Sequence record: PZ445430.1
Strand: one strand, 5' to 3'
DNA length: 64,000 nt
DNA from: a phage
The stretch's first letter is position 1, and every line of letters begins with the position of its first letter. Made by a program: the position numbers and the translations under genes. Shown here one piece after another: positions 9,694 through 38,958 of this stretch. The notes under the pieces are model-generated. The model was not told the DNA's origin, did not search any database, and saw only the letters and a program-made list of their open reading frames with translations.

Positions 9694-9724
9694 ATTTAAA
9701 CTCCTCTCTCAAATTTATGAATCT

Positions 9725-9753
9725 ATTATACAGAAAATTTTTGCAAGATGCAA
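9725..9753 (-). promoter_or_regulatory. sigma70-type promoter (minus strand)
   Basis: Minus strand reads TTGCAT, 17 bp, TATAAT, then leader CATAAATTTGAGAGAGGAG before the ATG. Confidence 0.5.
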
Positions 9754-9759: not shown

Positions 9760-10332
9760 TTATAAAGAAGCTGCTTTCAGCTTGTTATACCTATAAAGAA
9801 TGGCCGGGGCGCTTTTAAATCCAAGCACTCTAGCAGTTTTTCTCCAAGAATTGGTTTTCTGATACGTAGATTCTATTAACTCTAAGGTTAGAGTATCGCC
9901 GGAGGGAATAACCACATTATATTTAAACATAGCCCTGCACCTATAAGATGCAGCCGCTTTAGTTATGCCCATACTTTCTAATTTCTTAATTTCTGCTAGG
10001 AAATCTGGATGTTCTCTCCAATTTTTATTATGAAATTTTATTGCATTAGCTTTGTAGGTTAATACCTGCAAGTTAACTAATCTAGGATCTAACTTATCAT
10101 CATTTATATGGTCTACTACCAATTCTGATTCTAATCCAGGAAGTAGCCCAAAACAATAAGCTACTAACCTATGCACCCTCACATTTATAGGAGAGCCATC
10201 CTTCATTAAATTAACTTGTAAGTACCCCGCAGTATTTTGACCCGGAGCAAGAAATTTGTTGGAGAGAAAAGAATACACCTCTCCATTTTCATTCACTGCA
10301 TAGTCAGGAAATTCGGGAATTCTTATAAACAT
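9760..10332 (-). CDS. HNH homing endonuclease
   Basis: 190 aa; HNH core HRLVAYCFG...VVDHINDDKLDPRLVNLQVLTYKANA; free-standing between replication genes. Confidence 0.7.
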   Translation of the reverse strand: MFIRIPEFPDYAVNENGEVYSFLSNKFLAPGQNTAGYLQVNLMKDGSPINVRVHRLVAYCFGLLPGLESELVVDHINDDKLDPRLVNLQVLTYKANAIKFHNKNWREHPDFLAEIKKLESMGITKAAASYRCRAMFKYNVVIPSGDTLTLELIESTYQKTNSWRKTARVLGFKSAPAILYRYNKLKAASL

Positions 10333-10564
10333 TATTGTTCCTTGAGCAAAGAAGCAAGTTCAGCATAGACTTTATCTAGCTCAAAGCCAATGCGAAGGGA
10401 CACACGAGTCTTCCGTTGTTTAAGTAACCATATGGAGACATTAGGGATGCCAGCGAGACGTGGTGGTACCACTCTACATAGTTTCTCCGCAGTATCGTAA
10501 ACAGAAGTTTTACGTTCTTTTACGGGAAACTTCCTTGTTTCCCACTTTTTATTCTTCACTGTCA
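10332..10564 (-). CDS. small hypothetical protein
   Basis: About 77 aa from an internal ATG; abuts the HNH gene; overlaps the stop of the large ATPase gene. Confidence 0.3.
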
Positions 10565-13338
10565 TTTCTAGCCCCCAATTCAGCAAGAGCTTCCTCATGC
10601 ATCTGACGTTCTTCATCTGTCATAAACTTAACTGGAATCGGCATACATTCGATCTTACAGTAAGTTCTGTACCAGTCCACAATCTTTTCCGTATCCAGAT
10701 CTTTACCAATACCCATCATGCCAAGATACATACGAGCATATTTTGGGTTAGCACTCTGACCTGTCTTAAGGAAGAAATCCTTCTTCTTATTCTTAAGAGC
10801 TTCAATAAAAGGTTTGATTGTTACGTTTGAACACTTCTTAATATCCTCCCAGAACATATCGTGCATCTTATGGAAGAATGCAGCTCTATCGTTTGGTTTA
10901 TCCTTGATATATTGTTCAACGTGTTCCACTGTTACATCTTTAATAGAATCCAGATGATAATAGCGAACCAGAAGTAACTTGGCTTCATATGCATCTGCAT
11001 GACGTGGTGCGCAGTATTCAGGAGTTGAGTGCAAAATAGCTTTGATTCGCTCTTCTGTATACTCTTTGCCTGCACCTTCGATAGTTCCCCAGCTTTCACT
11101 GAAAATATCAATAGTTGCACCTTGATCGAGAAGATAATACCGCAAAGTACTGGTATAGTTTCTAGATTCCAGCTCACGACGACGTGCGTACAGTTGTTGG
11201 GCTAACTCAATCCAACCTTCGTCAATATTATATTGCTCGGAACCCGCAGAAAATCCACTCGTAGATTTATCAATAAAATAATAAATGTTCTGAGCACCAC
11301 GGTCGCGCCTGATTGCTTGAAAACGCATGTTTGGCGCTTGGTTTGAGGTTCTAGTAATTACGAATACATTATCAAAATAGTTAAAGTCAACACCACTCGT
11401 TACAGATGGACTACATAATAAACAATCAATCTGTTGATCAATTAGCTCATTAGTTGTATAATCCAGAATACGTCGGATATCTACATCAGACGTAGAGTTT
11501 GAGTGAATTTCTTTAACTAACGCACCAGTATTACGACGTAACGCCATTCCCTTTTCATTCAGTTCATCTGGTCCACAGTCAGATACTAGGATTGACTTCT
11601 CACCCATCTCTAGAGATGTTTGAAGTGCAACCCAAATACTGGATTCATCAGGGAATTCATAAGCATGAGCTTTCGCCAGCATTTTACGGTGGTGATTATA
11701 AAATGCGACTGGTTTATCAAAATCAATCAAAGAACCATAGGCTTCAATCGTTTCTGCACTGATATCCCCATCAGATAAGATCACCGTTTTTGCAGTAATA
11801 AGAATATCACGAAGAACCTGAATACATTCACGACGGTTTTTAACAACCGGAGCGAATAACAGATCATTCATTACTGCGTCACATTCATCAATAAAGATCG
11901 TATCAATCTGACCCACAAAGCTCTTGAACTTATGTATAGAGTGAATAGTTGAAGACATACGATCAATAGCACCACGTTTGAAGTTCAGCATATCAACTGA
12001 CTTATCATACTGGCCAGCACCGAATTTCTTCGCATTAGAAGATACAAGTGCCCTAGTATTTGTGATTGCAATAAAGTTTCCTGGAAGAACACCTGCATCT
12101 AGCCACTTAGTTACTGCGGTAGTTTTACCCGTACCAAGACTTGCCTTAACAAATGTTAAATGTCCTTTTGGTGGTACAATGTTAATTTTCAGGTATGGAA
12201 CTTCTGGTGGAGAATCTGTGTCTAGACGTTTTAATGGTACACCTTTTAAGTTTGGTGGAATCTCACGTTTGGAGTTATTTACAAAGGCTTTGAGAGCCTG
12301 CTTACGACCGTTATTAAAGTAATCTTGAATATTACGACTATTATCTTTAGTCGCAATATACTCAGATAAAGCTGGTTTAATCTCACGTTCTAACCACGTA
12401 AAGTCAACACCATCTTCTAACGCTCTGTGATAAAGTTTTGGGATAATACGCAGGTACACTCCATCCTCAGCTTCTTCTAGTTCGCTGATGGTTTCTTCCA
12501 CTTTATCAGATGCAGCCTTCTTGCCTTTAATTTGGTCAAGTAAGGAGTAGAATTCTTCTTTAAACTCACCTCTAGTTGTTTCAAAGTCAACTAGGTTATT
12601 GGGTAGATTCACTTTCGAACCCTTAACATACACAAGACGTGGTTTATTCTCCGCTTTAAACGGATCGACTATACCATCATCAAATAAGGGGTCTGCAAAA
12701 TAGTGAAGCTGAACAGAAGAATAATAAGCTAAGTCAGCAATATCAAAACCATACTTTTGCTTACTACTGTCATTGATAGATGTAAATAAGAACTTTAACT
12801 GACCTTGCGTTACCTTGACATTAGATTCTAGCATTAAGTGCATTCGGATACCTGGTTTTAGGCCAGCCGAAGACGATGCATGAGCAATAAACCCTGCATC
12901 AAGAGGAAACATATCCTCACTAATACTATTCAACATCTTAATAATATGACGTGCCATGCCAACAAGATTAAACTTGTCATAGCCACCAGTATCTACAATA
13001 CCATCCACGTCCATAGCGATAATATGACTAGGATTGGATACGTTAAAGTTTCCTCTGGTACGACGCACATTATCTTTTGGAGCTAAACATTTACCACGAA
13101 TAGCTACAATATGCGGGTCTTTGGTAAGACGACGCATGATAGGTAACATTTCAGCAAGGTTTTGCGGGTCAAGTTCTTCAAGTACATCAAATTTGAAGGG
13201 CATGGAAGCTGGTTTACCTTCTGGATGCTCTTTAGAGAATCGCTTTGCAAAGGTGTAGTCTTCCACTTTGATCTCTTTCCAGATGCCAGTGGCTTTATCT
13301 CTGGAAAATCCTGCGTGACCTTGTAGGATTGAGAACAC
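10549..13338 (-). CDS. large replication-associated P-loop ATPase (primase/helicase or origin-binding type)
   Basis: Walker A SLGTGKTT and Walker B-like IFIDECDAV; probable GTG start at 13338, 7 nt after AGGAG; the listed 970 aa N-terminus looks non-coding. Confidence 0.55.
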   Translation of the reverse strand: MFSILQGHAGFSRDKATGIWKEIKVEDYTFAKRFSKEHPEGKPASMPFKFDVLEELDPQNLAEMLPIMRRLTKDPHIVAIRGKCLAPKDNVRRTRGNFNVSNPSHIIAMDVDGIVDTGGYDKFNLVGMARHIIKMLNSISEDMFPLDAGFIAHASSSAGLKPGIRMHLMLESNVKVTQGQLKFLFTSINDSSKQKYGFDIADLAYYSSVQLHYFADPLFDDGIVDPFKAENKPRLVYVKGSKVNLPNNLVDFETTRGEFKEEFYSLLDQIKGKKAASDKVEETISELEEAEDGVYLRIIPKLYHRALEDGVDFTWLEREIKPALSEYIATKDNSRNIQDYFNNGRKQALKAFVNNSKREIPPNLKGVPLKRLDTDSPPEVPYLKINIVPPKGHLTFVKASLGTGKTTAVTKWLDAGVLPGNFIAITNTRALVSSNAKKFGAGQYDKSVDMLNFKRGAIDRMSSTIHSIHKFKSFVGQIDTIFIDECDAVMNDLLFAPVVKNRRECIQVLRDILITAKTVILSDGDISAETIEAYGSLIDFDKPVAFYNHHRKMLAKAHAYEFPDESSIWVALQTSLEMGEKSILVSDCGPDELNEKGMALRRNTGALVKEIHSNSTSDVDIRRILDYTTNELIDQQIDCLLCSPSVTSGVDFNYFDNVFVITRTSNQAPNMRFQAIRRDRGAQNIYYFIDKSTSGFSAGSEQYNIDEGWIELAQQLYARRRELESRNYTSTLRYYLLDQGATIDIFSESWGTIEGAGKEYTEERIKAILHSTPEYCAPRHADAYEAKLLLVRYYHLDSIKDVTVEHVEQYIKDKPNDRAAFFHKMHDMFWEDIKKCSNVTIKPFIEALKNKKKDFFLKTGQSANPKYARMYLGMMGIGKDLDTEKIVDWYRTYCKIECMPIPVKFMTDEERQMHEEALAELGARNDSEE

Positions 13339-13834
13339 AACAATACTCCTATGTTGGTTATTCGGATATCTTTCTTTAGGACTATTCAAAAGAATAGAAC
13401 AACTATTACTACCATTTACACAAACATTAATCATCATCAAGCAGTATGAATAAGTTATCATACCTCAGTGCTGCGCTCTCTTAACTCTTATCCAGATCAG
13501 AATCTAGGTCATTGGCCGCTAAGCCGATTCTGATTGCCCTCACTATCCTATTGGTAGGTGGCTACTGGACGTGTCACCATTCGCTGCTCTTTTCGTTCGC
13601 ACCCCCATATAAAGCTCTGCCTATATAACGAGCTAAATATGCACGGTTTGGATTTACCTTTCCGAATTCAGGGTACGCAGATCACTTAATTGATAATTAA
13701 CTAACGCAGTATAAACACTAGTAATAGTTAAAACAACCCTTAATGGGGCAGCCTAACTGTTCCGTATTGCGGATTGTAAACAAGAAAAATTAGCAAAATC
13801 AATTTTTACTAATGTCTCTCAATTCAATATAAAT

Positions 13835-13863
13835 ATTATATCAAGATTTTGAGCATCCTGCAA
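13835..13863 (-). promoter_or_regulatory. sigma70-type promoter (minus strand) heading a 490 bp ORF-free region
   Basis: Minus strand reads TTGCAG, 17 bp, TATAAT. Confidence 0.5.
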
Positions 13864-13954
13864 GTAAAATTTTTCCGAAGGTGCTATCAGTGTCCTTGAG
13901 CACAGAGAAAACCGAGTCATTTTGACTCGGTAATCAGGATTGAGCTAATGAAAA

Positions 13955-14350
13955 TCAATCATCATTTAGGCCTGGGACATAGATTCCAATGCGATTTAAT
14001 TGACCTTTAGCTTCTTCGAGAATATCTTCGGTGTACTCCCAAATATCATCTTCTACTTGCAAAAGATAAGGGGATTCACCAGTTTCGGGGTCACGTGTAA
14101 TGGCTAAGCCACGTGGATGGAATATAGAGAAGTTGAGGGCAACAATCAAGCCCATGCTGGACAATTCATTCCAGTCAGCTTCCCAACCATCATCTTCATC
14201 TTCGTCCACAAAGACACCTACACTAGGGTCTGTTACAGAAGTAAACGGAAATGTTACACTAACCTTGTCAACCCCCAACCAACGTGCAAGGAGCCCTTCA
14301 GCACGCTCTACCAAATTAGGATCTATCTGACGCCAAAATACTTGTTCCAT
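13955..14350 (-). CDS. hypothetical protein, paralog A of a tandem pair
   Basis: 131 aa; shares W-x-EL-x-x-MGL-x-x-ALN and a GY-x-x-PGL C-terminus with the adjacent ORF. Confidence 0.5.
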   Translation of the reverse strand: MEQVFWRQIDPNLVERAEGLLARWLGVDKVSVTFPFTSVTDPSVGVFVDEDEDDGWEADWNELSSMGLIVALNFSIFHPRGLAITRDPETGESPYLLQVEDDIWEYTEDILEEAKGQLNRIGIYVPGLNDD

Positions 14351-14359: not shown

Positions 14360-14788
14360 TTAAGCAGTTAAACCTGGGATCATATACCCGAAACGACGAA
14401 GTTTCTGAATCCCCTCATTTACTTCTTCGGGCGAATATGACCAGCCCTCACGTTCATTTACCTGGAAAGCAGGAGCTTCACCAGTGCGATAGTTTACAAT
14501 AAGACGGTGATTTGCAGGCATAAACAGCTTATGGTTCAAGGCAAAAACCAGACCCATTTCATCTAGTTCTTTCCAGTCTACAATTTCTTCTACTCTCTCA
14601 CCTAAATCCACGCTAACTCCAATACATGGAGCTTCCTCTAGTGGGCCTTTAAAGGATAGGAAGATATCGTTATTATCACACCAAATCTTAAGCAGATTGA
14701 TGGTTTCATTATACATACCATTAGGGAGAGAACGCCAGAAGTTGAGGAGCATAGGGTTTACCTCTTTCATGAAAAGATTATCGAACAT
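14360..14788 (-). CDS. hypothetical protein, paralog B of a tandem pair
   Basis: 142 aa; same conserved blocks as 13955-14350. Confidence 0.5.
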   Translation of the reverse strand: MFDNLFMKEVNPMLLNFWRSLPNGMYNETINLLKIWCDNNDIFLSFKGPLEEAPCIGVSVDLGERVEEIVDWKELDEMGLVFALNHKLFMPANHRLIVNYRTGEAPAFQVNEREGWSYSPEEVNEGIQKLRRFGYMIPGLTA

Positions 14789-15468: not shown

Positions 15469-15632
15469 TATTCTCCCTCCTTAATAAGGAACTCTTTCCA
15501 TTCTGCTGTATCCTCATAGATAACGCAGAAATCATCACTCTTCCATGAGAAGTCATCAGTAGCAAATTCGAAACGGTAGCACCAACTACCATCTGGCCAT
15601 ACTAAAAGATCACACATGCTTTTCTGGGACAT
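15450..15632 (-). CDS. small acidic hypothetical protein
   Basis: 60 aa from the ATG behind a GGAGGG RBS; acidic C-terminus EGEYGEEDF. Confidence 0.4.
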   Translation of the reverse strand: MSQKSMCDLLVWPDGSWCYRFEFATDDFSWKSDDFCVIYEDTAEWKEFLIKEGEYGEEDF

Positions 15633-16461
15633 AAATATTTCCCTCCATAAAAGCTTCAACTTGATCAATAAAGTGTTTATTACCAAAAACTTCGGCAGCT
15701 CCAGCACGCCATACAGTAACACCACGTTTCTCATACTCAAGCTGTTCGTCATAACGAACTTGTGGGTTAACAACCATCATCTTAGTTCCACGACATACAG
15801 CAGGAAATAATTCCCAGTTGAAGTTGATAACTTGGTTACTACAACCCACCACAATAACCATGTCATTGCTAGTAAGAGTATCAAACAGGTTGATTTGACC
15901 CATGTACCACGGAGCTGTCTCACCAAAGAACACCACGTTTGGTTTTACCCATTCGTAATCTTCAGGGGCAATCGCAGTATACCCAACATCTTCGATGATT
16001 TGATTGCGACCCTGATGATAGATCACCTCTTTCAAGTACCCGTGAGCGTGAATGATTTCATCACGAGGGATACCAGCACGTTCCAGAAGGTCATCAACGT
16101 TAGTAGTGAAGTTCTTCACGCTACCCGCATCATAACGCTGGAACCATTCTGCAATTCGCAGATGGGCAATGTTAGGCTCAACAGTCTGTAGTTCCTGACG
16201 ACGCATGTTGTAGAACTCATGAGTCTTGAGATACAGATCGTTACCATCTTCATCAATGCCAGGGAAACGAGCGCTGAAGTAGTTAGGATCATCTTCACCA
16301 CAGAAGCGACGGAAGCCAGCTTCAAAGTTAGGCAAGCTACATACTTCCTCTAGATCGTACTCATCCCACAAAGATTTTCCACTAGCAGTATCAGTACGGA
16401 AAGCACGAACACCACTATCTACACTCAAACCTGCACCACTAACAACAATTAGTCTACGCAT
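15610..16461 (-). CDS. SIR2-family (sirtuin-like) NAD-dependent protein
   Basis: 283 aa; sirtuin NAD-binding motif VVSGAGLSVDSGVRAFR; catalytic-type HG in IIHAHGY; VVFFGE block; no canonical CxxC-CxxC zinc module. Confidence 0.7.
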   Translation of the reverse strand: MRRLIVVSGAGLSVDSGVRAFRTDTASGKSLWDEYDLEEVCSLPNFEAGFRRFCGEDDPNYFSARFPGIDEDGNDLYLKTHEFYNMRRQELQTVEPNIAHLRIAEWFQRYDAGSVKNFTTNVDDLLERAGIPRDEIIHAHGYLKEVIYHQGRNQIIEDVGYTAIAPEDYEWVKPNVVFFGETAPWYMGQINLFDTLTSNDMVIVVGCSNQVINFNWELFPAVCRGTKMMVVNPQVRYDEQLEYEKRGVTVWRAGAAEVFGNKHFIDQVEAFMEGNIYVPEKHV

Positions 16462-17216: not shown

Positions 17217-19091
17217 TTATTTAGCGCGAATGTCCTGATGTTTCACTCGACCCATAACCTCATGTTGTTTACCTGGGTTAAATGGACGAGCACCTGGATT
17301 TCCGAGATATCCACAAACTCGACGAGTTACCTCAAGAGTCTCAGGATCATGGTTGCCACAAATTGGGCATTTGAAACCATCCTCAGAAGCTATAGTTTCA
17401 CCCAAGAACCCACATTCCCCACAAGAGTCTACTGGAGTATTAATACCAAAGTAATGAACTTTACTTGCGGCATAGTTAATAACCCATTCCAGTGCATCTG
17501 GGAATCGTTTCATATCCGGCAATTCCACATAGGAAATGCATCCACCAGAAGCAATTGGAGTAAAGTTAGACTCATAATCGAACTTCACGTTTGGAGCAAC
17601 CTTACGTTCTACATCAAGGTGATGGGAATTAGTGTAATATCCTTTAGCCAGAATATCTTCATGCTCTGGAAAATACTCACGGTCTAGGCGACAGAAGCGA
17701 TCACATAGAGATTCAGATGGTGTAGCATATAGACTATACCCTAATTGAGTCTCTTCCTTCTTCTGATCAGCACGATCACGCATGTATTGTAGCACACGTT
17801 GAACGAACTTGACACAAGACTCAGACATTGTATCTACATCTTTACCAAACATGAACTGCAACATTTCGTGGCAGCCTATATATCCTAGAGATACAGAAGC
17901 ACGCTTGTAGAAATGATCAAACACATACTCATCTGGCCCCAGACGTAATCCAAAGGCTCCTGACATATAGAGGATGGGCGCAGCTTTAGCTTGGATGTAT
18001 TTTAAGCGATCAACCCTCCACTCCAATGCTTTTAACGCGGTATCCACACGCAGCTCAAGTAGATCGAAGAATAGATCAATATTTCCTTCCGCTTCGATAG
18101 CGATTCGAGGAAGGTTTACGGAAACAACGCCTAAGTTGTTACGACCAGAAGTTTCACCATCTTCCGCAGCAGCCAGGAATGAACGACAGCCCATAGAGAC
18201 TTTGTAGTCTCCCGTAACTTCTACAACCTTATCATAACTGATGTAGTCAGGATACATACGTTCAGCAGTACATTTCATAGCTAACTTCTTGATATCATAG
18301 TTAACATCACCAGGTTTCATGTTTACGCCATCACGCAAAACAAATACCAGTTTAGGGAAGATAGCTGTACGTTTATTGATACCCAAACCATCCATACGCA
18401 CTTCTAGGATTGCTTTCTGTACAAGACGTGCTTCCCAAGAAGTTCCTAGACCAAACCCAAAGGTAATAAACGGACTTTGACCATTAGAGTTGAACATCGT
18501 ATTGATTTCATACTCCAGGCCCTGACAGGCATCGTAAACTTCTTTCTCAGTCATTTCCGTAGCCATTACAGATGCTTTAGCTTCATCCTTAGTCCAACGC
18601 TTTGCAAACGCATGATTCTTATCATAAGACTTACGAACATAAGGAGCCAATACTTCATCTAATCGGTCTACAGAAGTACCCCCATATTGATGTGAACTAA
18701 CCTGAGTGATAATCTGAGCTGTGATAGCAGCCGCAGTAGTAATAGAGTTTGGTGTACTGATTTCAGCATTACCAACCTTCATACCATTCTTCAACATATC
18801 TTCCAAAGCAACCAGGCAACAGTTAGTCATACCTAACGCAGCGTAATCAGCATCATGGAAGTGAATATCACCAATCATGTGAGCATTTCGAATCTGGATT
18901 GGCATTTCTTCCAGAATCAGATATTTACTCAATTCCCCTGCAAGCATATCCCTTTGTGTAGGGAAACGTTCTGAGGGCTTATTGGCATTATTAAACAGCA
19001 GCTCTTCATCTGCTGAACCTTCGATAATTTCTTTGCAGTTTCGAATCAAGGACTGCATTCCTTTATACTTTAGTTCTTCATTGTGATTCAT
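17217..19091 (-). CDS. nrdD: anaerobic ribonucleoside-triphosphate reductase (class III)
   Basis: 624 aa; C-terminal zinc ribbon CGECG...CPICG followed by glycyl-radical motif RVCGYLG. Confidence 0.85.
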   Translation of the reverse strand: MNHNEELKYKGMQSLIRNCKEIIEGSADEELLFNNANKPSERFPTQRDMLAGELSKYLILEEMPIQIRNAHMIGDIHFHDADYAALGMTNCCLVALEDMLKNGMKVGNAEISTPNSITTAAAITAQIITQVSSHQYGGTSVDRLDEVLAPYVRKSYDKNHAFAKRWTKDEAKASVMATEMTEKEVYDACQGLEYEINTMFNSNGQSPFITFGFGLGTSWEARLVQKAILEVRMDGLGINKRTAIFPKLVFVLRDGVNMKPGDVNYDIKKLAMKCTAERMYPDYISYDKVVEVTGDYKVSMGCRSFLAAAEDGETSGRNNLGVVSVNLPRIAIEAEGNIDLFFDLLELRVDTALKALEWRVDRLKYIQAKAAPILYMSGAFGLRLGPDEYVFDHFYKRASVSLGYIGCHEMLQFMFGKDVDTMSESCVKFVQRVLQYMRDRADQKKEETQLGYSLYATPSESLCDRFCRLDREYFPEHEDILAKGYYTNSHHLDVERKVAPNVKFDYESNFTPIASGGCISYVELPDMKRFPDALEWVINYAASKVHYFGINTPVDSCGECGFLGETIASEDGFKCPICGNHDPETLEVTRRVCGYLGNPGARPFNPGKQHEVMGRVKHQDIRAK

Positions 19092-19130
19092 TATACCCTC
19101 CTTCTCTAACTAAGACTACTATTATAACTC

Positions 19131-19160
19131 ATTCGAAGGCGGATGTCAACAATATTTTAC
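19131..19160 (-). promoter_or_regulatory. sigma70-type promoter for nrdD (minus strand)
   Basis: Minus strand reads TTGACA, 18 bp, TATAAT, about 40 nt upstream of the nrdD start. Confidence 0.55.
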
Positions 19161-19341
19161 TATAAAGTTCTGTAACATGATCTGAGTCAAAAAATTTTAT
19201 TTGCCAACCTCTACTAAAAATAGTATAATCACGCACCCGTGCACGCGATATAAAATGATTATCTAGTACCATACATCTCCCAATAAAAGCAAGCAAATTT
19301 TTTATTTAAATGCAATATCATAGGCTTATTTAAAATTGTAG

Positions 19342-19370
19342 TTGCTTTCTCCCGTATATATTGGTATAAT
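19342..19370 (+). promoter_or_regulatory. sigma70-type promoter for phoH
   Basis: TTGCTT, 17 bp, TATAAT. Confidence 0.6.
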
Positions 19371-19443
19371 ATATTTGTAAGTTGATAAACAAGATCTTTT
19401 TGTTGATCCTCTGTTAGCGAAGTACACTATAGGAGTGTTATTT

Positions 19444-20196
19444 ATGGGAAAAGCACGTCAAAAAAGAGAGAACCGCAATGGTTCAAGAAAGCGTGGCAAC
19501 AAGTACGAGAGTAACGTAATTCAAGCAGATTTCTCTGGTGATTACGCCAATCCAGTTGCTAAACCCCTAGTTGGTAAAAACCGTGAGCAAAAATCATATA
19601 TCAATATGATCAAGAACAACACAGTGACTGTGGGTATTGGTGAACCAGGTACTGGTAAAACCTTTATTCCATCCGTTCTTGCAGCTCAGGAACTCGTAGA
19701 CATTCACTCAGATATTGAGCAAGTGATCCTCGTGCGTCCGAACGAACCTCTAGGTAAATCTCTTGGTATGCTCCCAGGTGATCTGGCAGAAAAGCTAGAG
19801 CCTTGGTTGGAACCAATAGCCGATGGCATGAAATGGGCAATCGGTGATCACGCCTACAAAGGATATGTCGAACGTCAGAAAATTAAATTCCTGGCTATCG
19901 AACATGCCCGTGGCCGAACTTTCAACAACTCCTATGTAATTGTCGATGAAGCTCAGAATATCTCCGTTGAAGCAATGATCTGTCTCCTGACTCGTGTAGG
20001 ACAAGATTGTCGTTTAATTATCTGTGGGGATATAGCGCAGAAAGACATCAAGGGTGATTCAGGTCTAGCACTTCTTATGGAAGTCTATGAGAAGTATGAA
20101 AACTCTCCTTTCTCTATGATCGAACTGATCGACAACGTTCGCTCACCAGAGTCTAAAGCATTCTACGATATCTTTAAGGATATGGGGAAGGTGTAA
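19444..20196 (+). CDS. phoH: PhoH-like ATPase
   Basis: Walker A GIGEPGTGKTF; Walker B-like VIVDEAQN; ATG at 19444 is 8 nt after AGGAG. Confidence 0.8.
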   Translation: MGKARQKRENRNGSRKRGNKYESNVIQADFSGDYANPVAKPLVGKNREQKSYINMIKNNTVTVGIGEPGTGKTFIPSVLAAQELVDIHSDIEQVILVRPNEPLGKSLGMLPGDLAEKLEPWLEPIADGMKWAIGDHAYKGYVERQKIKFLAIEHARGRTFNNSYVIVDEAQNISVEAMICLLTRVGQDCRLIICGDIAQKDIKGDSGLALLMEVYEKYENSPFSMIELIDNVRSPESKAFYDIFKDMGKV

Positions 20197-20197
20197 T

Positions 20198-20440
20198 ATG
20201 GGAAACGTCGTACATCTGCACCGCAAAACTAAGATCCACCGTACTTCATTGAGTGCTGCTAATATGATTACACGTAAGGAAGGGGAAGAAAGTCCTAAGA
20301 CTACCCTAGCGTGGAAAATTGTAGCCTCTAATCCAAATCGGCCATTCAACTATAATGAACTGAGTACTTCTATAGACATTCTTATGGCTAAGGAAATACG
20401 ACAGAAACTAACTGATATGACCGATAAACTTAAATGGTAA
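20198..20440 (+). CDS. small hypothetical protein
   Basis: 80 aa, coupled to the phoH stop. Confidence 0.4.
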   Translation: MGNVVHLHRKTKIHRTSLSAANMITRKEGEESPKTTLAWKIVASNPNRPFNYNELSTSIDILMAKEIRQKLTDMTDKLKW

Positions 20441-20447
20441 GACAGAC

Positions 20448-20481
20448 GAGCCTGGGTATGAAAATATCCGGGCTCTTTTTA
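20448..20481 (+). terminator. putative intrinsic terminator
   Basis: Hairpin GAGCCTGG...CCGGGCTC followed by TTTTTA. Confidence 0.45.
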
Positions 20482-20496
20482 TCTGTAAAATTGTAC

Positions 20497-20525
20497 TTGC
20501 AAAATGACCCAAAACAAAGTAGAAT
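20497..20525 (+). promoter_or_regulatory. sigma70-type promoter for nrdA
   Basis: TTGCAA, 17 bp, TAGAAT. Confidence 0.5.
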
Positions 20526-29537: not shown

Positions 29538-29566
29538 TTGCTTTCAGCTCCAAAATTCTGTATAAT
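29538..29566 (+). promoter_or_regulatory. sigma70-type promoter
   Basis: TTGCTT, 17 bp, TATAAT. Confidence 0.6.
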
Positions 29567-29606
29567 ATATTCATAAATTTGAGAGAACAACAAAAGGAAA
29601 ATAATT

Positions 29607-32419: not shown

Positions 32420-33272
32420 ATAAATTAGAGAACAGCGAGCCGATTACGCTGAGTGAGTTTAGTGATTCCTACTAGGATAGCTACTCCACTGAATAGAGTC
32501 GGTGAGTTGGAGACTAGTAAGTACTCTGAGAGAGGCTACGAGCTAACGCTTATTGCTATTGATAGGGAACTGAAAATCTGCGGAAAACTCGGGAGCTGTC
32601 CCGAAATCTCGTAAACTCTTCTCTAGTTTATGTTAGTGGGGTGTCGAACTGACTTATGTGATAACACTGCCGTCCTAGTATAAACGGTAATATCAAACCG
32701 TAACTGGTGGAAGATGCAGGTTCGAATCCTGCGGTCGGAAAGAATCAGATAACTCGGGCTTATACCGGATAAGCATTCGCTGCTGTAGTACATACTATGA
32801 CGGTTCAGGAGGTACGCCTCCTGATCAGTATTAGGTTAGAATCGAAACAGCTAAACCACGAGGAAACCTGACGGCCTCAACCAAACTCGGAACTCGGGAT
32901 CACTGCCTAGTGTGTACCCCGTTTAACCTGAGACTAGGCATCCAGCTTCGCATCGAAAATCGGAGGTGCGATTCTAACAGACCGCGTGAATATGAGAGTG
33001 GGAAACGCTGACATGAGAGATGTCACTAATGGTGCCCAATAGTACAGGTAATTCGCGATAATTCCTGTTGAGCGGCAGCAGTAGGCTGGGAGTCATGACC
33101 TAAGCCTAACCGAGTTCTTCACATACGGAGAACATAACCACAAAGTCACCCTGACTTAAACTGGAAGATATTGTCTGACGGAAGGGCTGCAGAGCTTAAT
33201 CTGAGGGGGCTGACCCTACCTACCGTCGGGTATCTTTAAGAGCTTTTATAAGAGTTCTTAAAAATACCTAAA
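32420..33272 (+). ncRNA. candidate large structured non-coding RNA (about 850 nt, promoter-driven, ORF-free)
   Basis: Promoter 32385-32413; no ORF of 60 aa or more on either strand; GC-richer than flanks; many local hairpins (e.g. GGAGGTACGCCTCC, CGGGAGCTGTCCCG); ends at tRNA-Arg. Confidence 0.35.
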
Positions 33273-33347
33273 CGGGGTGTAGTCTAAGGGATAGGCAGGA
33301 GTCTTCTAAATTCCTTTATGCAGGTTCGAATCCTGTCACCTCGGCCA
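33273..33347 (+). tRNA. tRNA-Arg (anticodon TCT)
   Basis: Cloverleaf by hand: acceptor CGGGGTG/CACCTCG, anticodon loop CTTCTAA, T-arm GCAGG-TTCGAAT-CCTGT, encoded CCA. Confidence 0.75.
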
Positions 33348-33373
33348 ATTTTATTAACTGCTAGGAAAATAAA

Positions 33374-33574
33374 GTGAAAACACGATATATAGTAAAAGTA
33401 GTAGGTGAACATTCACAAGTAAATACCACCGATGTTACAGCGCTAGCATTTGAAGTAGTCTCCGGTATAGTCATATTTCATAACGGAGATATCAAAGCTC
33501 CTGAATTTGCTGTGGATGCTAGCCTGTTTATTTCTGCAACTAAAGTAACTGTAGTAGCTAACTCTTCTAAATAA
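33374..33574 (+). CDS. small hypothetical protein
   Basis: 66 aa, GTG start after AGGA. Confidence 0.35.
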   Translation: MKTRYIVKVVGEHSQVNTTDVTALAFEVVSGIVIFHNGDIKAPEFAVDASLFISATKVTVVANSSK

Positions 33575-33585
33575 TAAGGAAATAT

Positions 33586-34530
33586 ATGTTTACTAAAAAC
33601 ACTAAAGAACTGACTTCCGATCAAAAAGTAATTCGTACTATTAAACGTTGGGGCGTTGGTGCTGTAGTTGGTCTTGGCGCTCTTATTCTGGCTCTCAATT
33701 CCTATACAGTTGTTCAGGACGGTACGGTTAAAACTCAGACTTTCCTGGGTAAAGTTAGTCCTAATCCTGTATTGCCGGGGTTCCATATTGTCAACCCATT
33801 CGCCTCTTTTGATACTTTTAGTACGAAAGATATTTCTATGAAACTGGATAAACTTCAGGTTCCTAGCCAGGATAAGTTTAAGTCCACTGTTGACATTACC
33901 GTTATGTTGCAGTTTGATGGTGCTAAAGCTCCTATGAACCGTGTTAACGCAGGTACTCAGGATCAAGCTCTGAACAAGTACGTTGAAGAGAAGATGCTAT
34001 CTACTATTCGTGAGTTTGGTAAGTCTGTACCAAAAGCACAAGATCTGTTCGACGCTAAGATTCAGGCTCAACTGCAAACTGCTATTCAGCAAGAAGTAGA
34101 AGAGTACGCGCGTCCTTATGGTTACACGGTTAAGCAAGTATTCCTTCAGGATATTACTCTGCCACCTGTAATCATGGAACAGGTACAAAACACAAAAGTT
34201 CGTGAAGAACAAGTTAACGCCGCTAAAGCTGAATTGGCTCGTGTTGAACAAGAAGCACAGCAGAAAGTTAAGCAAGCTGAAGCTGATCGTTCTGCTCGTG
34301 AAAACATGGCAGTAGCTAACGAACGTGACGCAGATGCTAAACTGTACGCAGCTAAGAAAGAAGCTGAAGCTAACGCCGCGCTGCAACGTACCATTACTCC
34401 TGAAATGATTCGTTGGAAGCAGCTGGAAGTTGAAATGCTTCGTGCTGAAAAATACCAAGGTGGTGTACCGCAGACTATTGTTGGTACTGGCTACGATGGT
34501 CAAATGATCATGGATATGCGTAACAAGTAA
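33586..34530 (+). CDS. SPFH/band-7 (HflC/prohibitin-like) membrane protein
   Basis: 314 aa; N-terminal TM helix WGVGAVVGLGALILALN; long Ala/Glu/Gln-rich coiled coil typical of SPFH proteins. Confidence 0.6.
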   Translation: MFTKNTKELTSDQKVIRTIKRWGVGAVVGLGALILALNSYTVVQDGTVKTQTFLGKVSPNPVLPGFHIVNPFASFDTFSTKDISMKLDKLQVPSQDKFKSTVDITVMLQFDGAKAPMNRVNAGTQDQALNKYVEEKMLSTIREFGKSVPKAQDLFDAKIQAQLQTAIQQEVEEYARPYGYTVKQVFLQDITLPPVIMEQVQNTKVREEQVNAAKAELARVEQEAQQKVKQAEADRSARENMAVANERDADAKLYAAKKEAEANAALQRTITPEMIRWKQLEVEMLRAEKYQGGVPQTIVGTGYDGQMIMDMRNK

Positions 34531-34553
34531 TAGTTACACGTAATCTTCGAACC

Positions 34554-34592
34554 AAGCCCGCGTTTCCTCCGAGAGCGCGGGCTTTTCTGTAT
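34554..34592 (+). terminator. intrinsic terminator after the SPFH gene
   Basis: AAGCCCGCG...CGCGGGCTT hairpin then TTCTGTATTT. Confidence 0.65.
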
Positions 34593-34742
34593 TTAAGGCA
34601 AAAGAAAAGCCCATAAGTTATTCAACTAAGGTCTTTAGTATTTAATTCTTTAATTCTTTAGAATCATATACTATTATTGTAGCAACAACGTGCTACCACT
34701 AAATGCCTTGAGATTTTTCCACTAAAAAGTTTAAAAATTCGA

Positions 34743-34771
34743 TTGCTTGAACGCTAAATTCTCTGTATAAT
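34743..34771 (+). promoter_or_regulatory. sigma70-type promoter for nadR-pnuC
   Basis: TTGCTT, 17 bp, TATAAT. Confidence 0.6.
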
Positions 34772-34801
34772 ATATTTATAAATTTGAGAGAGGAATCAAA
34801 T

Positions 34802-35857
34802 ATGATTAAGACTGGTCTAGTAATTGGTAAGTTCGCGCCATTAACGCGTGGTCATATTAACCTAATAAACACAGCAGCAACTATGTGTGAACGAGTTATT
34901 GTTGTAGTTAGTCATGATAATCGTTGGCTGGATAAGCAGAACACACGTGATCAGGAAGTATTACAGTTAAAGAATCGACTTCGTTGGTTAGAACAAACTT
35001 ACGCGGATATTGAGCACATTTCGGTAGAGTACATTATTGAAGATGATATTCCTGAATATCCGAATGGTTGGCCGGAATATGCTAGAATCCTTAATGAAAA
35101 TTACGGACATTTGCCTGAGATCACCGTTTTCTCTAGCGAACTAGACTATGATGCAGAATATAAGAAATATCTGCCGAAGTTTGGTCATTATATTGTAGAT
35201 TCTGATCGGACTCGTGTTCCAATCTCAGCTACAATGATTCGTAATGATCTTATGAAGTATTGGGAGTTTCTTCCTAGCGTAGTTCGTAAAGATTACGTGC
35301 GTAAGGTTGTAATCATTGGGACTGAAAGCTCGGGAAAGACTACTTTAACAAAATACCTTGCGAAGCTATACAACACTTCGTGGGTAGAAGAATATGGCCG
35401 AACGTATTGTGAAGTTGATCTAGTTGGTAACGAAAATCTACTTACCAGTGAAGATTACAGTAAAATTGCGTTCAGACACAAAGAGCTAGAGTTTGAGGCA
35501 GAACGTACTGCAAATAAGATCATGTTTGTAGACACAAATGCTTTTATTACTGAGTTCTACCACAGACTTTATGAACATCGTAAGAATCCTGTGGTTACAG
35601 CAATTGCAAAAGAAGAACATTACGATTTAGTAATTGTTCTAGCGCCTACTGTTAAGTGGGTAGATGATGGTTTACGTATTAACTCCGATCGTTCAATTAC
35701 TTCTGAACTGTTCGAGCAGATGAAGAAAGAATTTCCAAATCAGTTCCCTGAAGGGCGTACTGTTTACATCGACTCCCCGGACTACAAAGTTCGTATGGAC
35801 GAAGCAGTAAACGCAGTAGACTGGCTGATTCATCACTTTAACGTTGGAGAGTTTTAA
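34802..35857 (+). CDS. nadR: NadR-like bifunctional NMN adenylyltransferase / ribosylnicotinamide kinase
   Basis: Nucleotidyltransferase motif GKFAPLTRGH at the N-terminus; second-domain P-loop GTESSGKTTL; start at 34802 after promoter 34743-34771. Confidence 0.65.
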   Translation: MIKTGLVIGKFAPLTRGHINLINTAATMCERVIVVVSHDNRWLDKQNTRDQEVLQLKNRLRWLEQTYADIEHISVEYIIEDDIPEYPNGWPEYARILNENYGHLPEITVFSSELDYDAEYKKYLPKFGHYIVDSDRTRVPISATMIRNDLMKYWEFLPSVVRKDYVRKVVIIGTESSGKTTLTKYLAKLYNTSWVEEYGRTYCEVDLVGNENLLTSEDYSKIAFRHKELEFEAERTANKIMFVDTNAFITEFYHRLYEHRKNPVVTAIAKEEHYDLVIVLAPTVKWVDDGLRINSDRSITSELFEQMKKEFPNQFPEGRTVYIDSPDYKVRMDEAVNAVDWLIHHFNVGEF

Positions 35858-35858
35858 T

Positions 35859-36536
35859 ATGACTAACTATCTTGTAAATGACTTTAAAAACTGGAAACCT
35901 TTGGAATATCTGTGGCTGTTTATAGCAGTCGCCTTTATTAGTTTAGCAAACTATAATGGTACAGCTCTAGATTGGGCTACTGCAATAACCAATGTGGTTT
36001 GTGTTATTCTGGTTGCAAAAGGACGTGTTTCCAACTATATTTGGGGCTTAGTGGGTGTTCTTACATATGGTATTACAGCTTTAAACGCAGATCTTTATGG
36101 TAACGCTGCACTAAACCTGCTATACTACGTTCCTATGCAGTTTTATGGAATGTACTTATGGCATAAAAATAAGCCAAGTAATCTGCCAGATGTTCCAACT
36201 AAGTTTCTGACTAAAGCCCAAGCTCTGCTGACTCTAGGGATTCTAGCAGTAGCCACGTTAGGGTATGGTAGTTTCTTAGCTACTACAGCTGATCCATTCC
36301 CAATGCTCGATGCATTTACTGCGGTTGGTAGTGTGATCGCTATGTGGCTTATGGTTAAGCAGTATGCCGAGCAGTGGCTGATCTGGATTGCTATTAACAT
36401 TGGTACTGTGTACATTTGGCTTGTAACTGCTCAATCTACAGGTGCATCTTATGCAATCCTAGCAATGTGGCTAGTATTCTTAGGTAACTCTATTATGGGA
36501 GCCTATAAAGGATACTTTGTACGCGTTAACAAATAA
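35859..36536 (+). CDS. pnuC: PnuC-like nicotinamide riboside transporter
   Basis: About 225 aa polytopic membrane protein, Trp/Tyr-rich helices, directly coupled to the nadR stop. Confidence 0.6.
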   Translation: MTNYLVNDFKNWKPLEYLWLFIAVAFISLANYNGTALDWATAITNVVCVILVAKGRVSNYIWGLVGVLTYGITALNADLYGNAALNLLYYVPMQFYGMYLWHKNKPSNLPDVPTKFLTKAQALLTLGILAVATLGYGSFLATTADPFPMLDAFTAVGSVIAMWLMVKQYAEQWLIWIAINIGTVYIWLVTAQSTGASYAILAMWLVFLGNSIMGAYKGYFVRVNK

Positions 36537-36543
36537 AGTAGTT

Positions 36544-36570
36544 ATAGCCCTCGCTTAGAGGGCTATTATA
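36544..36570 (+). terminator. hairpin after pnuC
   Basis: ATAGCCCTC-GCTTA-GAGGGCTAT. Confidence 0.45.
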
Positions 36571-36583
36571 CAGAAATTTTCAC

Positions 36584-36612
36584 TTGCTTAATATAGAAAA
36601 TTTCTGTATAAT
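36584..36612 (+). promoter_or_regulatory. sigma70-type promoter
   Basis: TTGCTT, 17 bp, TATAAT. Confidence 0.6.
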
Positions 36613-36642
36613 ATATTTATAAATTCGAGAGAGGAATCAAAC

Positions 36643-36939
36643 ATGAAACGCATTGTACTTGCATTGACTCTAGTATCTACTTCTGTATTTGCTGCTCCGC
36701 AACAGGAACTTTGTCAAGTTCAGGTTTGTAATAAGCTAGAACGATTTACTCTAAACATTTGGTCCCATATTAAAGATAATATGGGTGAACAGTGTTTTGA
36801 TATTGTTCTGCCAAAAGAACAGGCTATTCCTGGTGCTGTTCTTAGCTCAGAATCACGTTGGTGGCAGGGTTCTTCTATCAATCCAACTAAGAAGTCAGTG
36901 ACACGTATCAAACAAGTATATCAGTGCAAGGTTCAGTAA
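36643..36939 (+). CDS. small secreted hypothetical protein
   Basis: Signal peptide MKRIVLALTLVSTSVFAAP; four Cys. Confidence 0.5.
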   Translation: MKRIVLALTLVSTSVFAAPQQELCQVQVCNKLERFTLNIWSHIKDNMGEQCFDIVLPKEQAIPGAVLSSESRWWQGSSINPTKKSVTRIKQVYQCKVQ

Positions 36940-36947
36940 AATTTCAC

Positions 36948-36976
36948 TTGCTTAATGTCGAAATTTTCTGTATAAT
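36948..36976 (+). promoter_or_regulatory. sigma70-type promoter driving a tRNA transcript
   Basis: TTGCTT, 17 bp, TATAAT; tRNA-Ser begins about 15 nt after the -10. Confidence 0.6.
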
Positions 36977-36990
36977 ATATTCATAAATTC

Positions 36991-37084
36991 GGAAGATTAA
37001 CCCTAATGGTAAGGGAGCTGTTTGCTAAACAGCCAGTAGCTGTGGAGACACGGTGTGCCAGTTCGAATCTGGCATCTTCCTCCA
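36991..37084 (+). tRNA. tRNA-Ser (anticodon GCT), class II
   Basis: Acceptor GGAAGAT/ATCTTCC, anticodon stem GCTGT/ACAGC with loop TTGCTAA, long variable arm, T-loop TTCGAAT, CCA; starts about 8 nt after promoter 36948-36976. Confidence 0.7.
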
Positions 37085-37089
37085 GATTT

Positions 37090-37167
37090 GGTTCTCAAGC
37101 TCATTTGGTATGAGCCGTCGCCTCATAAGCGAAAGGTAGGTAGGTTCGAATCCTCCGGGAGCCACCA
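37090..37167 (+). tRNA. tRNA with CAT anticodon (Met/fMet or Ile2)
   Basis: Acceptor GGTTCTC/GGGAGCC, anticodon loop CTCATAA, T-loop TTCGAAT, CCA. Confidence 0.6.
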
Positions 37168-37184
37168 ATTAATTAGGAGACTAT

Positions 37185-37370
37185 ATGTCACGCTTTCGAG
37201 AAATTGCTCAAGAGCTAGAAGAATGTATGTGTACTGAATGTTGGGGTTCTGGCACTCAAAATGATGCTGAACCTGGGGACATTTTCTATAACGAATGGGA
37301 ATGTCCTACCTGTAAAGGTTCTGGCATTAACCCTAATTATGCAATTTCTTTTGATATTGAGCGAGGCTAA
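37185..37370 (+). CDS. small zinc-ribbon-like protein
   Basis: 61 aa; CxxC pairs CTECWGSG and CPTCKGSG. Confidence 0.5.
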   Translation: MSRFREIAQELEECMCTECWGSGTQNDAEPGDIFYNEWECPTCKGSGINPNYAISFDIERG

Positions 37371-37371
37371 A

Positions 37372-37710
37372 ATGGATATTTTTACAACTCCGGCAGTCAA
37401 CCTTTTAGGTGTAGGTCTGTTCCAAGCTACCATCTATCGTATTGATGATACCACAGATGTAGTAACGTTCATTGTACCAGAGTTCTTCCTAGAAAAGTTC
37501 TTTGAAGAGTTTGAGCAGTTTCGTGAAGAACACAATGCTCATTCCGATATGGAAGATCTAGCAGCTATGTTCCCTGCGGTTTACGGCTATATCTTTGAAG
37601 GTAATGGCCTAGATCTTAATAAATCTGAACTCGTTGAACTTAACTGGGGCATCAATTTTGAAGTTGGCTCTCCATTCCCTCGATATTTCCAGGGTTTAGA
37701 GATTCGCTAA
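37372..37710 (+). CDS. hypothetical protein
   Basis: 112 aa from the ATG overlapping the upstream stop. Confidence 0.45.
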   Translation: MDIFTTPAVNLLGVGLFQATIYRIDDTTDVVTFIVPEFFLEKFFEEFEQFREEHNAHSDMEDLAAMFPAVYGYIFEGNGLDLNKSELVELNWGINFEVGSPFPRYFQGLEIR

Positions 37711-37718
37711 GATTACAT

Positions 37719-37795
37719 GGGGGTGTAATCGAATTGGCATAGGTACTGGACTTAAAATTCAGGTTTTGTGGGTTCGAATCCCACCACCCCTACCA
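37719..37795 (+). tRNA. tRNA, anticodon loop CTTAAAA (TAA, Leu-type codon UUA) with class I architecture
   Basis: Acceptor GGGGGTG/CACCCCT, T-arm GTGGG-TTCGAAT-CCCAC, discriminator A, CCA; short variable loop is unusual for Leu. Confidence 0.5.
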
Positions 37796-37810
37796 AATTA
37801 AGGAAATAAA

Positions 37811-37954
37811 ATGAAAGCTATTAAGAAAGCACTGCGTAAATTTATGTACTGTCGTTTTCATAGCATCAAGGCTTCAACTAATGGTACGACTTACGATCGC
37901 TATGATCCTAAGTTTGGCTTACACTCTAAACAACTGGAGAAAACAAATGGCTAA
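37811..37954 (+). CDS. small hypothetical protein (47 aa)
   Basis: ATG after TAAGGA RBS; overlaps the next ORF. Confidence 0.25.
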   Translation: MKAIKKALRKFMYCRFHSIKASTNGTTYDRYDPKFGLHSKQLEKTNG

Positions 37955-38153
37955 TCCTGAAATTACGGCACAACGCTTTATGCTGAAAGGAATTATTGCT
38001 GAAGCAGGCATGACAGAAGAAGTTGCAGATTTTCAAAAGCAATTCCTCAATATTCTCACTCAAGCCAAAGAGCTAGGAGAGAAAGAACATGGCGCGGCTA
38101 TTATGGCAATCACATTGGTTGGGCTTGATCTGGCTGAAGAATCAGGAGTTTAA
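37948..38153 (+). CDS. small hypothetical protein
   Basis: 68 aa from the ATG after GGAGAAAA. Confidence 0.4.
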
Positions 38154-38183
38154 CTCCTCCAAGCAGAAATTTTAAAAATGTAC

Positions 38184-38213
38184 TTGCTTTTTACTTAAGA
38201 TTTCTGCTATAAT
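38184..38213 (+). promoter_or_regulatory. sigma70-type promoter
   Basis: TTGCTT, 18 bp, TATAAT. Confidence 0.5.
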
Positions 38214-38242
38214 AGTTATATAAGTTGATGAGAGGAATCAGA

Positions 38243-38515: not shown

Positions 38516-38553
38516 TAACTGATACAGCACTGAGCAAGTTCTTTAAAATCTTA

Positions 38554-38789: not shown

Positions 38790-38797
38790 AAATTAAT

Positions 38798-38872: not shown

Positions 38873-38881
38873 ATTAATAAT

Positions 38882-38952: not shown

Positions 38953-38958
38953 ATATTT

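Follow-up and report, generated by a model that had tools for sequence, protein, structure and literature searches.

Directly upstream of the D2 helicase gene in the phage of sequence record PZ445430.1, of which a stretch of 64,000 nucleotides (the window) was analysed, lies a non-coding gap of 616 nt (13339-13954), bounded by the stop codon of the preceding gene (13955) and by the GTG start codon of D2 (13338). Sequence comparison identifies this gap as the template of a large structured RNA, the structured part of which comprises approximately 450 nt (13828 to approximately 13382) and approximately 19 helices. The element is very probably a functional structured RNA, and in the sequences compared, from six genera of T5-like phages, its shape is conserved rather than its sequence. 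The initial annotation of the window had suggested a long regulatory leader, a small RNA gene or a replication-origin-like element behind a minus-strand promoter. A conserved structured RNA is indeed present behind this promoter, as the 5' leader of the helicase mRNA, but it is not small. By its sequence similarity, the window belongs to a T5-like phage: the 701 bases around the locus are 100% identical to Escherichia phage SuperGirl (Bas29; Demerecviridae, Epseptimavirus), and 538 phage records match this 701-base stretch.

The fold is shown by covariation among the aligned sequences. A single sequence in the transcript sense is more stably folded than its shuffled versions (folding z = -4.08). 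A first alignment (A3) of 15 close relatives, including the window, T5, BF23 and phiR2-01, was made with MAFFT without using structure, and its RNAalifold consensus contains 152 pairs in 19 helices. In this consensus, 98.1% of the cells are paired, versus 36-51% in slid controls, in which the 3' partners were shifted by 1-3 columns. Both sides have changed in 29 of the 152 pairs, versus 1-6 in the slid controls and 5.9 +/- 1.8 after shuffling, and none of the 500 shuffles reached 29. Eight of the pairs changed on both sides are located in the stalk helices 3-5, which are also seen as repeat I1. The changes in helix 19 in this alignment are one-sided only. A second sequence-based alignment (A5), of an independent and divergent clade, covers Tequintavirus and Epseptimavirus phages with the type B core (described below), the Pectobacterium phages DU_PP_V and My1, and Klebsiella phages of the genus Sugarlandvirus. 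The architecture is the same as in A3, with 157 pairs, 88.7% of cells paired (36-48% in slid controls) and 61 compensatory pairs (19-29 in slid controls). Comparative alignment, which the initial annotation had proposed, has been carried out and reveals a conserved covarying fold.

Because MAFFT was unable to align the helices over all lineages, a script was used to check eight helices on arms picked by hand, and these are complementary, with differing sequences at equivalent positions, in 8-10 lineages. The arms of helix H15 are UCAGAAUC/GAUUCUGA in the window, AUUGAGG/CCUCAAU in phiR2-01 and CAAAUC/GAUUUG in type B, and in more distant phages CCACAC/GUGUGG (Klebsiella), AUACGGG/CUCGUAU (My1) and CCACG/CGUGG (Proteus). 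The long-range helix P5 occurs as CUGCGU/GCGCAG, CUGUGU/GCACAG, CCAUAU/GUAUGG, CUACAU/GUGUAG and CUAGAA/UUCUAG, and compensatory variants of the trailing hairpin H18 are found in a Klebsiella phage (CUAUC/GAUAG) and in DU_PP_V (CUUUCC/GGAAAG). The partly palindromic segments CAGATCAGAATC / GATTCTGATTG, which had been noticed before, are present as perfect 9-nt arms (13496-13504 and 13526-13534) that correspond to H15. As a covarying helix within a large conserved fold, this palindrome is more than a chance occurrence.

The strand that folds can also be determined. G·U pairs are frequent, making up 21 of the 152 pairs in A3, and in A5 384 G·U cells are observed versus 54 A·C cells. The minimum free energy is -119 kcal/mol for the sense strand and -90 kcal/mol for the antisense strand, a difference of approximately 30 kcal/mol in favour of sense. 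These G·U pairs and the stability of the sense strand indicate that it is the transcript-sense strand that folds, and this strand-specific folding is not explained by a double-stranded DNA element. Compensatory substitutions beyond those due to relatedness and folding of the sense strand, the generic characteristics of a structured non-coding RNA (ncRNA), are thus both observed.

The RNA is found directly upstream of D2, and in the same orientation, in six genera. The carriers are Tequintavirus, Epseptimavirus, Sugarlandvirus, the Pectobacterium phages My1 and DU_PP_V, a Proteus phage of the genus Novosibvirus, and Providencia phage PR1. A 16-base segment of its 5' element, ACGGAACAGTNNGGCTGC, matches 31 contigs among 2.9 million viral contigs; 30 of these 31 span 95-122 kb, like T5-like genomes, and several had already been retrieved with the D2 query. 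In bacterial genomes, more than 120 matches to ACGGAACAGTNNGGCTGC were obtained, which is at chance level (approximately 280 expected, by a rough estimate), and the matches in a collection scan with AGAAGTG-N50-75-CTTAGCGG were mostly due to chance. No paralogue was detected in the window with nhmmer, where the RNA is single-copy, and the nhmmer profiles built from A3 and A5 did not reach the Proteus and Providencia copies. A covariance model of domain I (R1), with type B, My1 and DU_PP_V as seeds, was too narrow: the seed lineages were recovered, the true phiR2-01 site was found weakly (13.9 bits, E = 0.07) and the remaining matches were noise.

An ORF-poor gap (ORF, open reading frame) of approximately 600-830 nt is present ahead of the D2 homologue in most of the T5-like family. 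In Vibrio T5-like phages (loci L008, L049-L051, L056 and L064), the non-coding gap upstream of the D2 homologue is approximately 700-830 nt, with a relatively high GC content of 0.45-0.50. It has an alifold z of -4.6 versus column shuffles (coding control -2.0), a sign of conserved structure, and a conserved promoter-proximal module and seemingly covarying stems can be seen by eye. Any homology to the RNA of the enterobacterial phages is conjectural.

The features of the locus, in the direction of transcription, are as follows.

13901 to 13931, minus strand: the upstream DUF7415 gene's intrinsic terminator, in which a T-run follows a 9-bp hairpin (13931-13911); bounds the unit on its upstream side.
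13835 to 13863, minus strand: early sigma-70 promoter, with -35 box TTGCAG (13863-13858), a 17-nt spacer and -10 box TATAAT (13840-13835).
13782 to 13820, minus strand: P1 (helix 1), the 5'-terminal hairpin (GAGAGAC...UUUUCUU), from folding and alignment.
13732 to 13777, minus strand: conserved 5' element (helix 2), with the nearly invariant ACGGAACAGUUAGGCUGCCCCAU at 13765-13743.
13675 to 13730, minus strand: 5' strand of the closing stalk, with H3 (13730-13711), H4 (13707-13690) and H5/P5 (13686-13675).
13477 to 13674, minus strand: multi-helix core (helices 6-16), with P6 (13674-13670 with 13605-13601), a GUUA-loop hairpin, H12-H14 and H15.
13534 to 13526 with 13504 to 13496, minus strand: the H15 stem within the core, enclosing the mini-hairpin H16 and the invariant CUUAGCGG.
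13400 to 13476, minus strand: 3' strand of the stalk, with H5 (13476-13467), H4 (13440-13424) and H3 (13419-13400).
13464 to 13458 with 13449 to 13443, minus strand: H17, a side hairpin that interrupts the stalk and contains the unconserved ATG 13461.
13382 to 13397, minus strand: H18, a trailing hairpin (CUAUUC/GAAUAG) just 3' of the stalk, followed by the conserved UCCUAAAGAAA.
13336 to 13353, minus strand: helix 19, a small hairpin at the D2 translation start, with AGGAG (13350-13346) in its 5' arm and loop and GUG (13338-13336) in its 3' arm.
10549 to 13338, minus strand: D2 helicase gene (929 aa), a superfamily 2 (SF2) protein resembling UL9 of herpes simplex virus (HSV), 'replication origin binding protein'; directly downstream of the RNA.

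In the stalk, H3, H4 and H5 together form approximately 45 pairs (13730-13675 with 13476-13400), and long-range enclosing pairs are predicted in all ten lineages (27-76 pairs). The loops of the core hold the invariant motifs CUUAGCGG and GAGAAGUG, the former (13523-13516) being present in every lineage that carries the RNA. H18 is not followed by a U-tract and is therefore not a terminator. At the position of P1, a hairpin of differing sequence is found in the Klebsiella, Pectobacterium, Proteus and Providencia phages. Directly after P1, phiR2-01 (L005, approximately 950-1050) and three other loci (L040, L023 and L030) carry an insertion of approximately 100 nt with its own hairpin, which duplicates the UUUUUCUU junction. 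This insertion is found with type A as well as type B cores, like a small mobile or recombining insert.

The D2 gene is annotated as 'replication origin binding protein' or 'DNA primase'. The D2 protein of T5 has been characterised by Wong et al. as a bipolar SF2 helicase, the domain coordinates of which agree with the gene in the window, and it has been proposed to be a replication initiator (PMC3632103). The Herpes_ori_bp ATPase core is located at residues 391-533, and for the N-terminal domain no Pfam, PHROG-function or PDB relative was found outside the UL9-like ATPase core. Conservation places the D2 start at GTG 13338: the N-terminus MFSIL, preceded by the ribosome-binding site (RBS) AGGAG, is kept in homologues down to 37% identity. 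The gap of 616 nt and the untranslated leader of approximately 490 nt both follow from this start. The ORF-free region ahead of the ATPase gene is thus real and larger than had been claimed, since the leader had been given as approximately 360 nt.

Next to no credence is due to a protein-coding role of the gap, whether as an overlooked small gene or as a longer D2 N-terminus starting at ATG 13461. This ATG is in frame in the window, had been named as an alternative start, and some depositors have annotated the ATG or a 33-aa ORF as coding (Sw2). However, the ATG is an ACG in a 98%-identical relative and is not conserved, and the upstream frame is closed within as well as outside the T5 group, with just 26 open in-frame codons and no ATG upstream of the D2 start in the T5 group and 0-15 codons in other lineages. 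The 33-aa ORF (13819-13920), the sole minus-strand ORF of at least 30 aa in the gap, lies across the terminator and the promoter. An ORF of 50-60 aa in the type B core has a TTG start without an RBS and stops after 21 codons in type A. In addition, the substitutions track base pairing and not codons. A conserved small protein gene, which would have spoken against the ORF-free reading, was not found in the comparative reading frames, which rule out both the small ORF and the upstream ATG. The annotation of this region is uneven among GenBank records, including Sw2 (NC_048062), GEC_vB_N7 and PNJ1902. Some records begin D2 at the unconserved upstream ATG or annotate 'hypothetical proteins' of 30-60 aa within the RNA region, and in the record of one Klebsiella phage a match nearby carries the label 'U3 small nucleolar RNA-associated protein'.

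The TTGCAG/TATAAT promoter on the minus strand is present at 13863-13835, where it had been reported, and also has an extended -10 (TGn at 13843-13842) that had not been mentioned. Transcription is predicted from the sequence to start near A13828. TTGCAG fits TTGACA at only three of six positions, because of which a generic promoter scanner omits the site. By its sequence, the promoter falls into an early-promoter family of the phage itself, TATAATAT-N12-GAGAG, which has 24 sites in the window versus 3.1 +/- 1.7 expected and shares the -10 box, the discriminator and a conserved initially transcribed ATAAATTTGAGAG. Other sites of this family are, for example, 9706-9730(-), 29561-29585(+), 34766-34790(+), 36607-36631(+) and 54996-55020(+), the first of which presumably resembles the classical T5 promoter PN25. 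The promoter of the D2 leader carries the ATATT discriminator that has been described for T5 early promoters (PMC7472727). The -35/-10 block is kept in five genera, from E. coli phages through Proteus phages.

In phage vB_Eco_mar003J3, a homing-endonuclease gene (orf111, 150 aa) and its flanks are inserted between the upstream gene and the RNA (L191 346-1000, equivalent to approximately 13840-13940 of the window). This cassette displaces the terminator and the usual promoter and supplies a different TATAAT promoter. Similarity to the window picks up at GAGAGAC, and the RNA is whole from its first hairpin on. The alternative promoter-proximal sequence of this phage, TTCCCATAAATGAGAG, also occurs in another locus (L041) and partly in a third (L027).

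On the upstream side, a terminator is annotated at the equivalent place in Bf23 and Lindwurm. Two tandem paralogous DUF7415 genes are located directly upstream of the RNA, at 13955-14350(-) (131 aa) and 14360-14788(-) (142 aa), with two DUF7415 repeats each. According to the SuperGirl annotation, a gene for a Sir2-like protein follows further upstream (15610-16461(-)), and a putative homing endonuclease gene is located two genes downstream of D2 (9760-10332(-)).

Multiple observations connect the RNA to D2. Neither the window nor the Proteus or Providencia phage was found to have a terminator between the RNA and D2, and with a promoter upstream and no terminator before D2, the RNA has the position of a cis-acting leader in the 5' untranslated region (5' UTR). 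Close relatives carry one of two core types, A or B, with a mutual identity of only 33-60%, whereas T5 and a type B phage have 100% identity over the 100 nt that immediately precede it (promoter, P1 and 5' element). The divergent block begins at the stalk base, peaks in the core and ends at approximately residue 570 of D2. Within D2, a hypervariable segment at codons ~361-420 (12079-12258 in the window; loci L010-L043), just before Walker A, occurs in the forms DSPPEVPYLKINIVPPKGH and NSLETDNFLKLNTVPPEGY. The core type co-segregates with the D2 variant at residues 361-420 in 25 genomes: 14 are A/A, 11 are B/B and none is recombinant.

The explanation that we favour, at about even chances, is that the RNA is an RNA-level module tied to D2, acting as a regulatory or processed leader that is possibly excised at the stalk. 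Host RNA polymerase would initiate at the T5 early-class promoter; the promoter itself is evident from the sequence, and the exact start is predicted. The transcript would then fold into the 5' hairpin, the invariant 5' element, the stalk of approximately 45 bp and the multi-helix core, as the covariation indicates, and transcription would run on into D2, as no terminator intervenes. The core could serve as a binding platform for a protein, possibly D2 itself, and set the D2 output from the weak GUG start. RNase III would probably cut at the rRNA-like stalk, by which the core could be released and H18 would head the remaining D2 mRNA.

Precedents for both parts of this proposal are known. In the RNase III stalks of 16S and 23S rRNA and the hairpins of T7 early mRNA, the sequences on either side of a structured RNA likewise pair into a long imperfect AU-rich duplex, and after the predicted cleavage a hairpin would head the new 5' end of the downstream message. 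With its approximately 45 pairs, the duplex of H3, H4 and H5 has the length expected of such a stalk (approximately 20 bp or more); it carries bulges that may affect RNase III, and its cleavage is a prediction. The T4 gene 32 pseudoknot, the T4 gene 43 operator and the leaders of ribosomal-protein genes are also structured 5' UTRs of genes for nucleic-acid-binding proteins. In this autoregulatory model, the protein binds its own leader and limits translation, and here the core co-varies with a segment of D2. Such operators are 20-150 nt in length with 1-3 helices, in contrast to the approximately 19 helices of the T5-like element, for which D2 binding is putative and which can be bypassed from a second promoter in Proteus phages.

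Several points weigh against a leader that is tied to D2. The start site, the cleavage by RNase III and the binding to D2 are all putative. The core of approximately 330 nt, with at least 15 helices, far exceeds known protein operators and appears closer to a free-standing ncRNA or a ribozyme. Proteus phage 2 (L007) has two perfect 12/12 sigma-70 promoters, one before the RNA (705-733) and one 42 nt before D2 (1435-1464), and approximately 300 nt of extra non-coding sequence separates the RNA from the second. D2 could therefore be produced without the leader in this phage, which weakens a purely cis role. The two types form one contiguous block, and their co-segregation may be due to a single recombination tract rather than to co-adaptation. 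Finally, no conserved mutually exclusive pairing that masks or exposes the RBS was identified.

The size of the core and the second Proteus promoter make a free-standing, trans-acting RNA the main rival, which is possible but somewhat unlikely. The core would be cut from the early transcript at the stalk and act in trans as a stable ncRNA, for example as a scaffold of a ribonucleoprotein, as a ribozyme or as a decoy against a host factor or defence, and its position next to D2 would reflect operon packing. In size and complexity, with its 19 helices, the RNA is akin to large bacterial and phage ncRNAs, and the rRNA-like closing stalk is found in all lineages. It also fits a trans role that a strong promoter of its own is retained even where the upstream region has been replaced, as in mar003J3, that D2 has a separate consensus promoter in Proteus phages, and that the RNA has a single copy in the window. 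The fast turnover of sequence with the shape kept, at 33-60% identity between A and B next to 100 nt that are 100% identical, would suit a molecule in an arms race. However, the RNA has no terminator or other defined 3' end, and its strict linkage to D2 and co-divergence with the N-terminal half of D2 are not required by a trans-acting RNA. Rfam scans also gave no similarity to known trans-acting RNAs.

A further, rather improbable explanation is that the locus is a replication-origin module of D2. The transcript would be a structured pre-primer or R-loop former, or the hairpins of the unwound sense DNA strand would be recognised by D2, in the way that HSV UL9 recognises the oriS* hairpin. The appeal of this idea is that D2 resembles UL9 and that origins usually lie next to initiator genes; in addition, the core of the RNA and D2 diverge as one block. 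Throughout the family, the D2 homologue has a long non-coding gap ahead of it. In T5, the locus is situated at 49% of the genome (L018), and a 1976 electron-microscopy study reportedly placed the primary T5 origin near the genome centre. ColE1 RNA II and the T4 origins oriF and oriG similarly combine a strong promoter with a non-coding transcript of several hundred nt near replication functions, and the folding of RNA II matters for its function.

Unlike these origins, the locus has no antisense promoter of the RNA I type (no plus-strand promoter-like site at 13400-13830), no AT-rich unwinding element (the GC content of the interval, 0.39-0.42, equals that of its flanks) and no skew switch. 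The GC skew is negative from 1 to 19.5 kb without a sign change, and the cumulative minimum is at approximately 19-20 kb and not at 13.4-13.9 kb. Iterons and direct repeats are absent, the interval having short two-copy repeats only. DnaA-box-like sites number 74 in the window versus 79.7 expected, with two one-mismatch sites in the interval. In addition, at least 15 covarying helices with invariant loops surpass the needs of known origins. The strand bias of recombitrons indicates that T5 replicates mainly from one end (PMC10055335), which argues against a dominant internal origin. The suggested replication-origin-like element has accordingly found no positive support: a skew switch, iterons and an enrichment of DnaA boxes are absent, and the folding is strand-specific. 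As a separate observation, the cumulative GC-skew minimum and sign change at approximately 19000-20500 are the sole skew turning point in the first 34 kb, and presumably coincide with a switch of gene orientation.

A metabolite- or ion-sensing riboswitch-like leader, which would tune D2 synthesis to the state of the infected cell, is very unlikely. It would agree with the 5'-UTR position, with a conserved multi-helix core that is closed off by a helix and has invariant unpaired nucleotides, and with the hairpin that holds the RBS and start codon. However, no Rfam riboswitch class is matched, and the element is 2-3 times the size of a typical aptamer. The core is almost wholly replaced between close relatives (A/B), unlike ligand pockets, and neither a terminator nor a convincing switch that blocks the Shine-Dalgarno sequence was found.

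The comparison with known RNA families was made with the 4227 covariance models of Rfam 15, which include RNase P, 5S, tmRNA, 6S, riboswitches and group I/II introns, as well as self-cleaving ribozymes, GOLLD, ROOL, HEARO, OLE and raiA. At the gathering thresholds, only tRNAs were found in the window. In the interval, a single 12-bit match to ARRPOF (threshold 127 bits) was obtained at E <= 10, sited on the promoter, and in ten homologous loci nothing was found in the RNA region at E <= 5. ARAGORN detected no tRNA or tmRNA within 13300-14000, and searches of the full-text literature found no description of the RNA. As far as these searches reach, the RNA matches no catalogued family and is previously uncatalogued. 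The tRNAs belong to a cluster at 32669-45655(+), with 27 genes by ARAGORN (33.2-45.7 kb) and 28 Rfam tRNA matches, in which most amino acids are covered. Three tRNA-Met are present and those for Ala, Gln, Lys, Leu, Arg and Gly are duplicated, which is typical of T5-like phages.

The RNA shares several characteristics with GOLLD and ROOL. These are also hundreds of nt in length with many covarying helices, occur in phages and prophages that carry tRNA genes, are conserved mainly in loops and junctions, and have functions that could not be deduced from sequence. The T5-like RNA differs in that it matches no Rfam model, is smaller, lies immediately 5' of D2 without a terminator and is known from T5-like phages of enterobacteria only.

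RNase P RNA is of comparable size to the T5-like RNA, and the phage has 27 tRNA genes; the resemblance is one of motifs only. The motif GGCUUAGCGG was set against GGCUUAUCGG, which we take to be the CR-V motif of RNase P, and the motifs CAGAAGUGAAAC, CCGUAGCGCC and GGGAACUGCCA occur in the same order as what we assume to be 5S rRNA motifs. GGCUUAGCGG sits in a local hairpin loop and not in a long-range helix of the P4 type. The RNase P-like and 5S-like readings were rejected because the covariance models are silent even at E <= 10, the topology differs and the P4-like pairing is lost in type A cores.

T5 has served as a model phage for over 60 years, and both phage therapy and research on defence systems make wide use of its relatives. 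Even so, hundreds of deposited genomes leave the 616-nt gap blank, fill it with small ORFs in error or start D2 at the wrong codon, for which the start of D2 at GTG 13338 is a correction. The finding places a new class of large RNA, accessible to structural and functional study, before a putative replication initiator, and provides a concrete candidate for the control of the early replication functions of T5. The two natural, interchangeable core types, each with its helicase variant, make the hypothesis of RNA-protein specificity directly testable. An unlikely, tentative extension is that the RNA is a new functional class that partners D2, either by serving replication initiation as its RNA cofactor or specificity module or by being catalytic or evading defences, with the core and D2 residues 361-420 as a matched cassette exchanged at the stalk. 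If the element is merely an elaborate mRNA leader, it would still be among the largest structured leaders known in a phage. Vibrio T5-like phages may hold a counterpart, which would make the RNA a hallmark of the family Demerecviridae.

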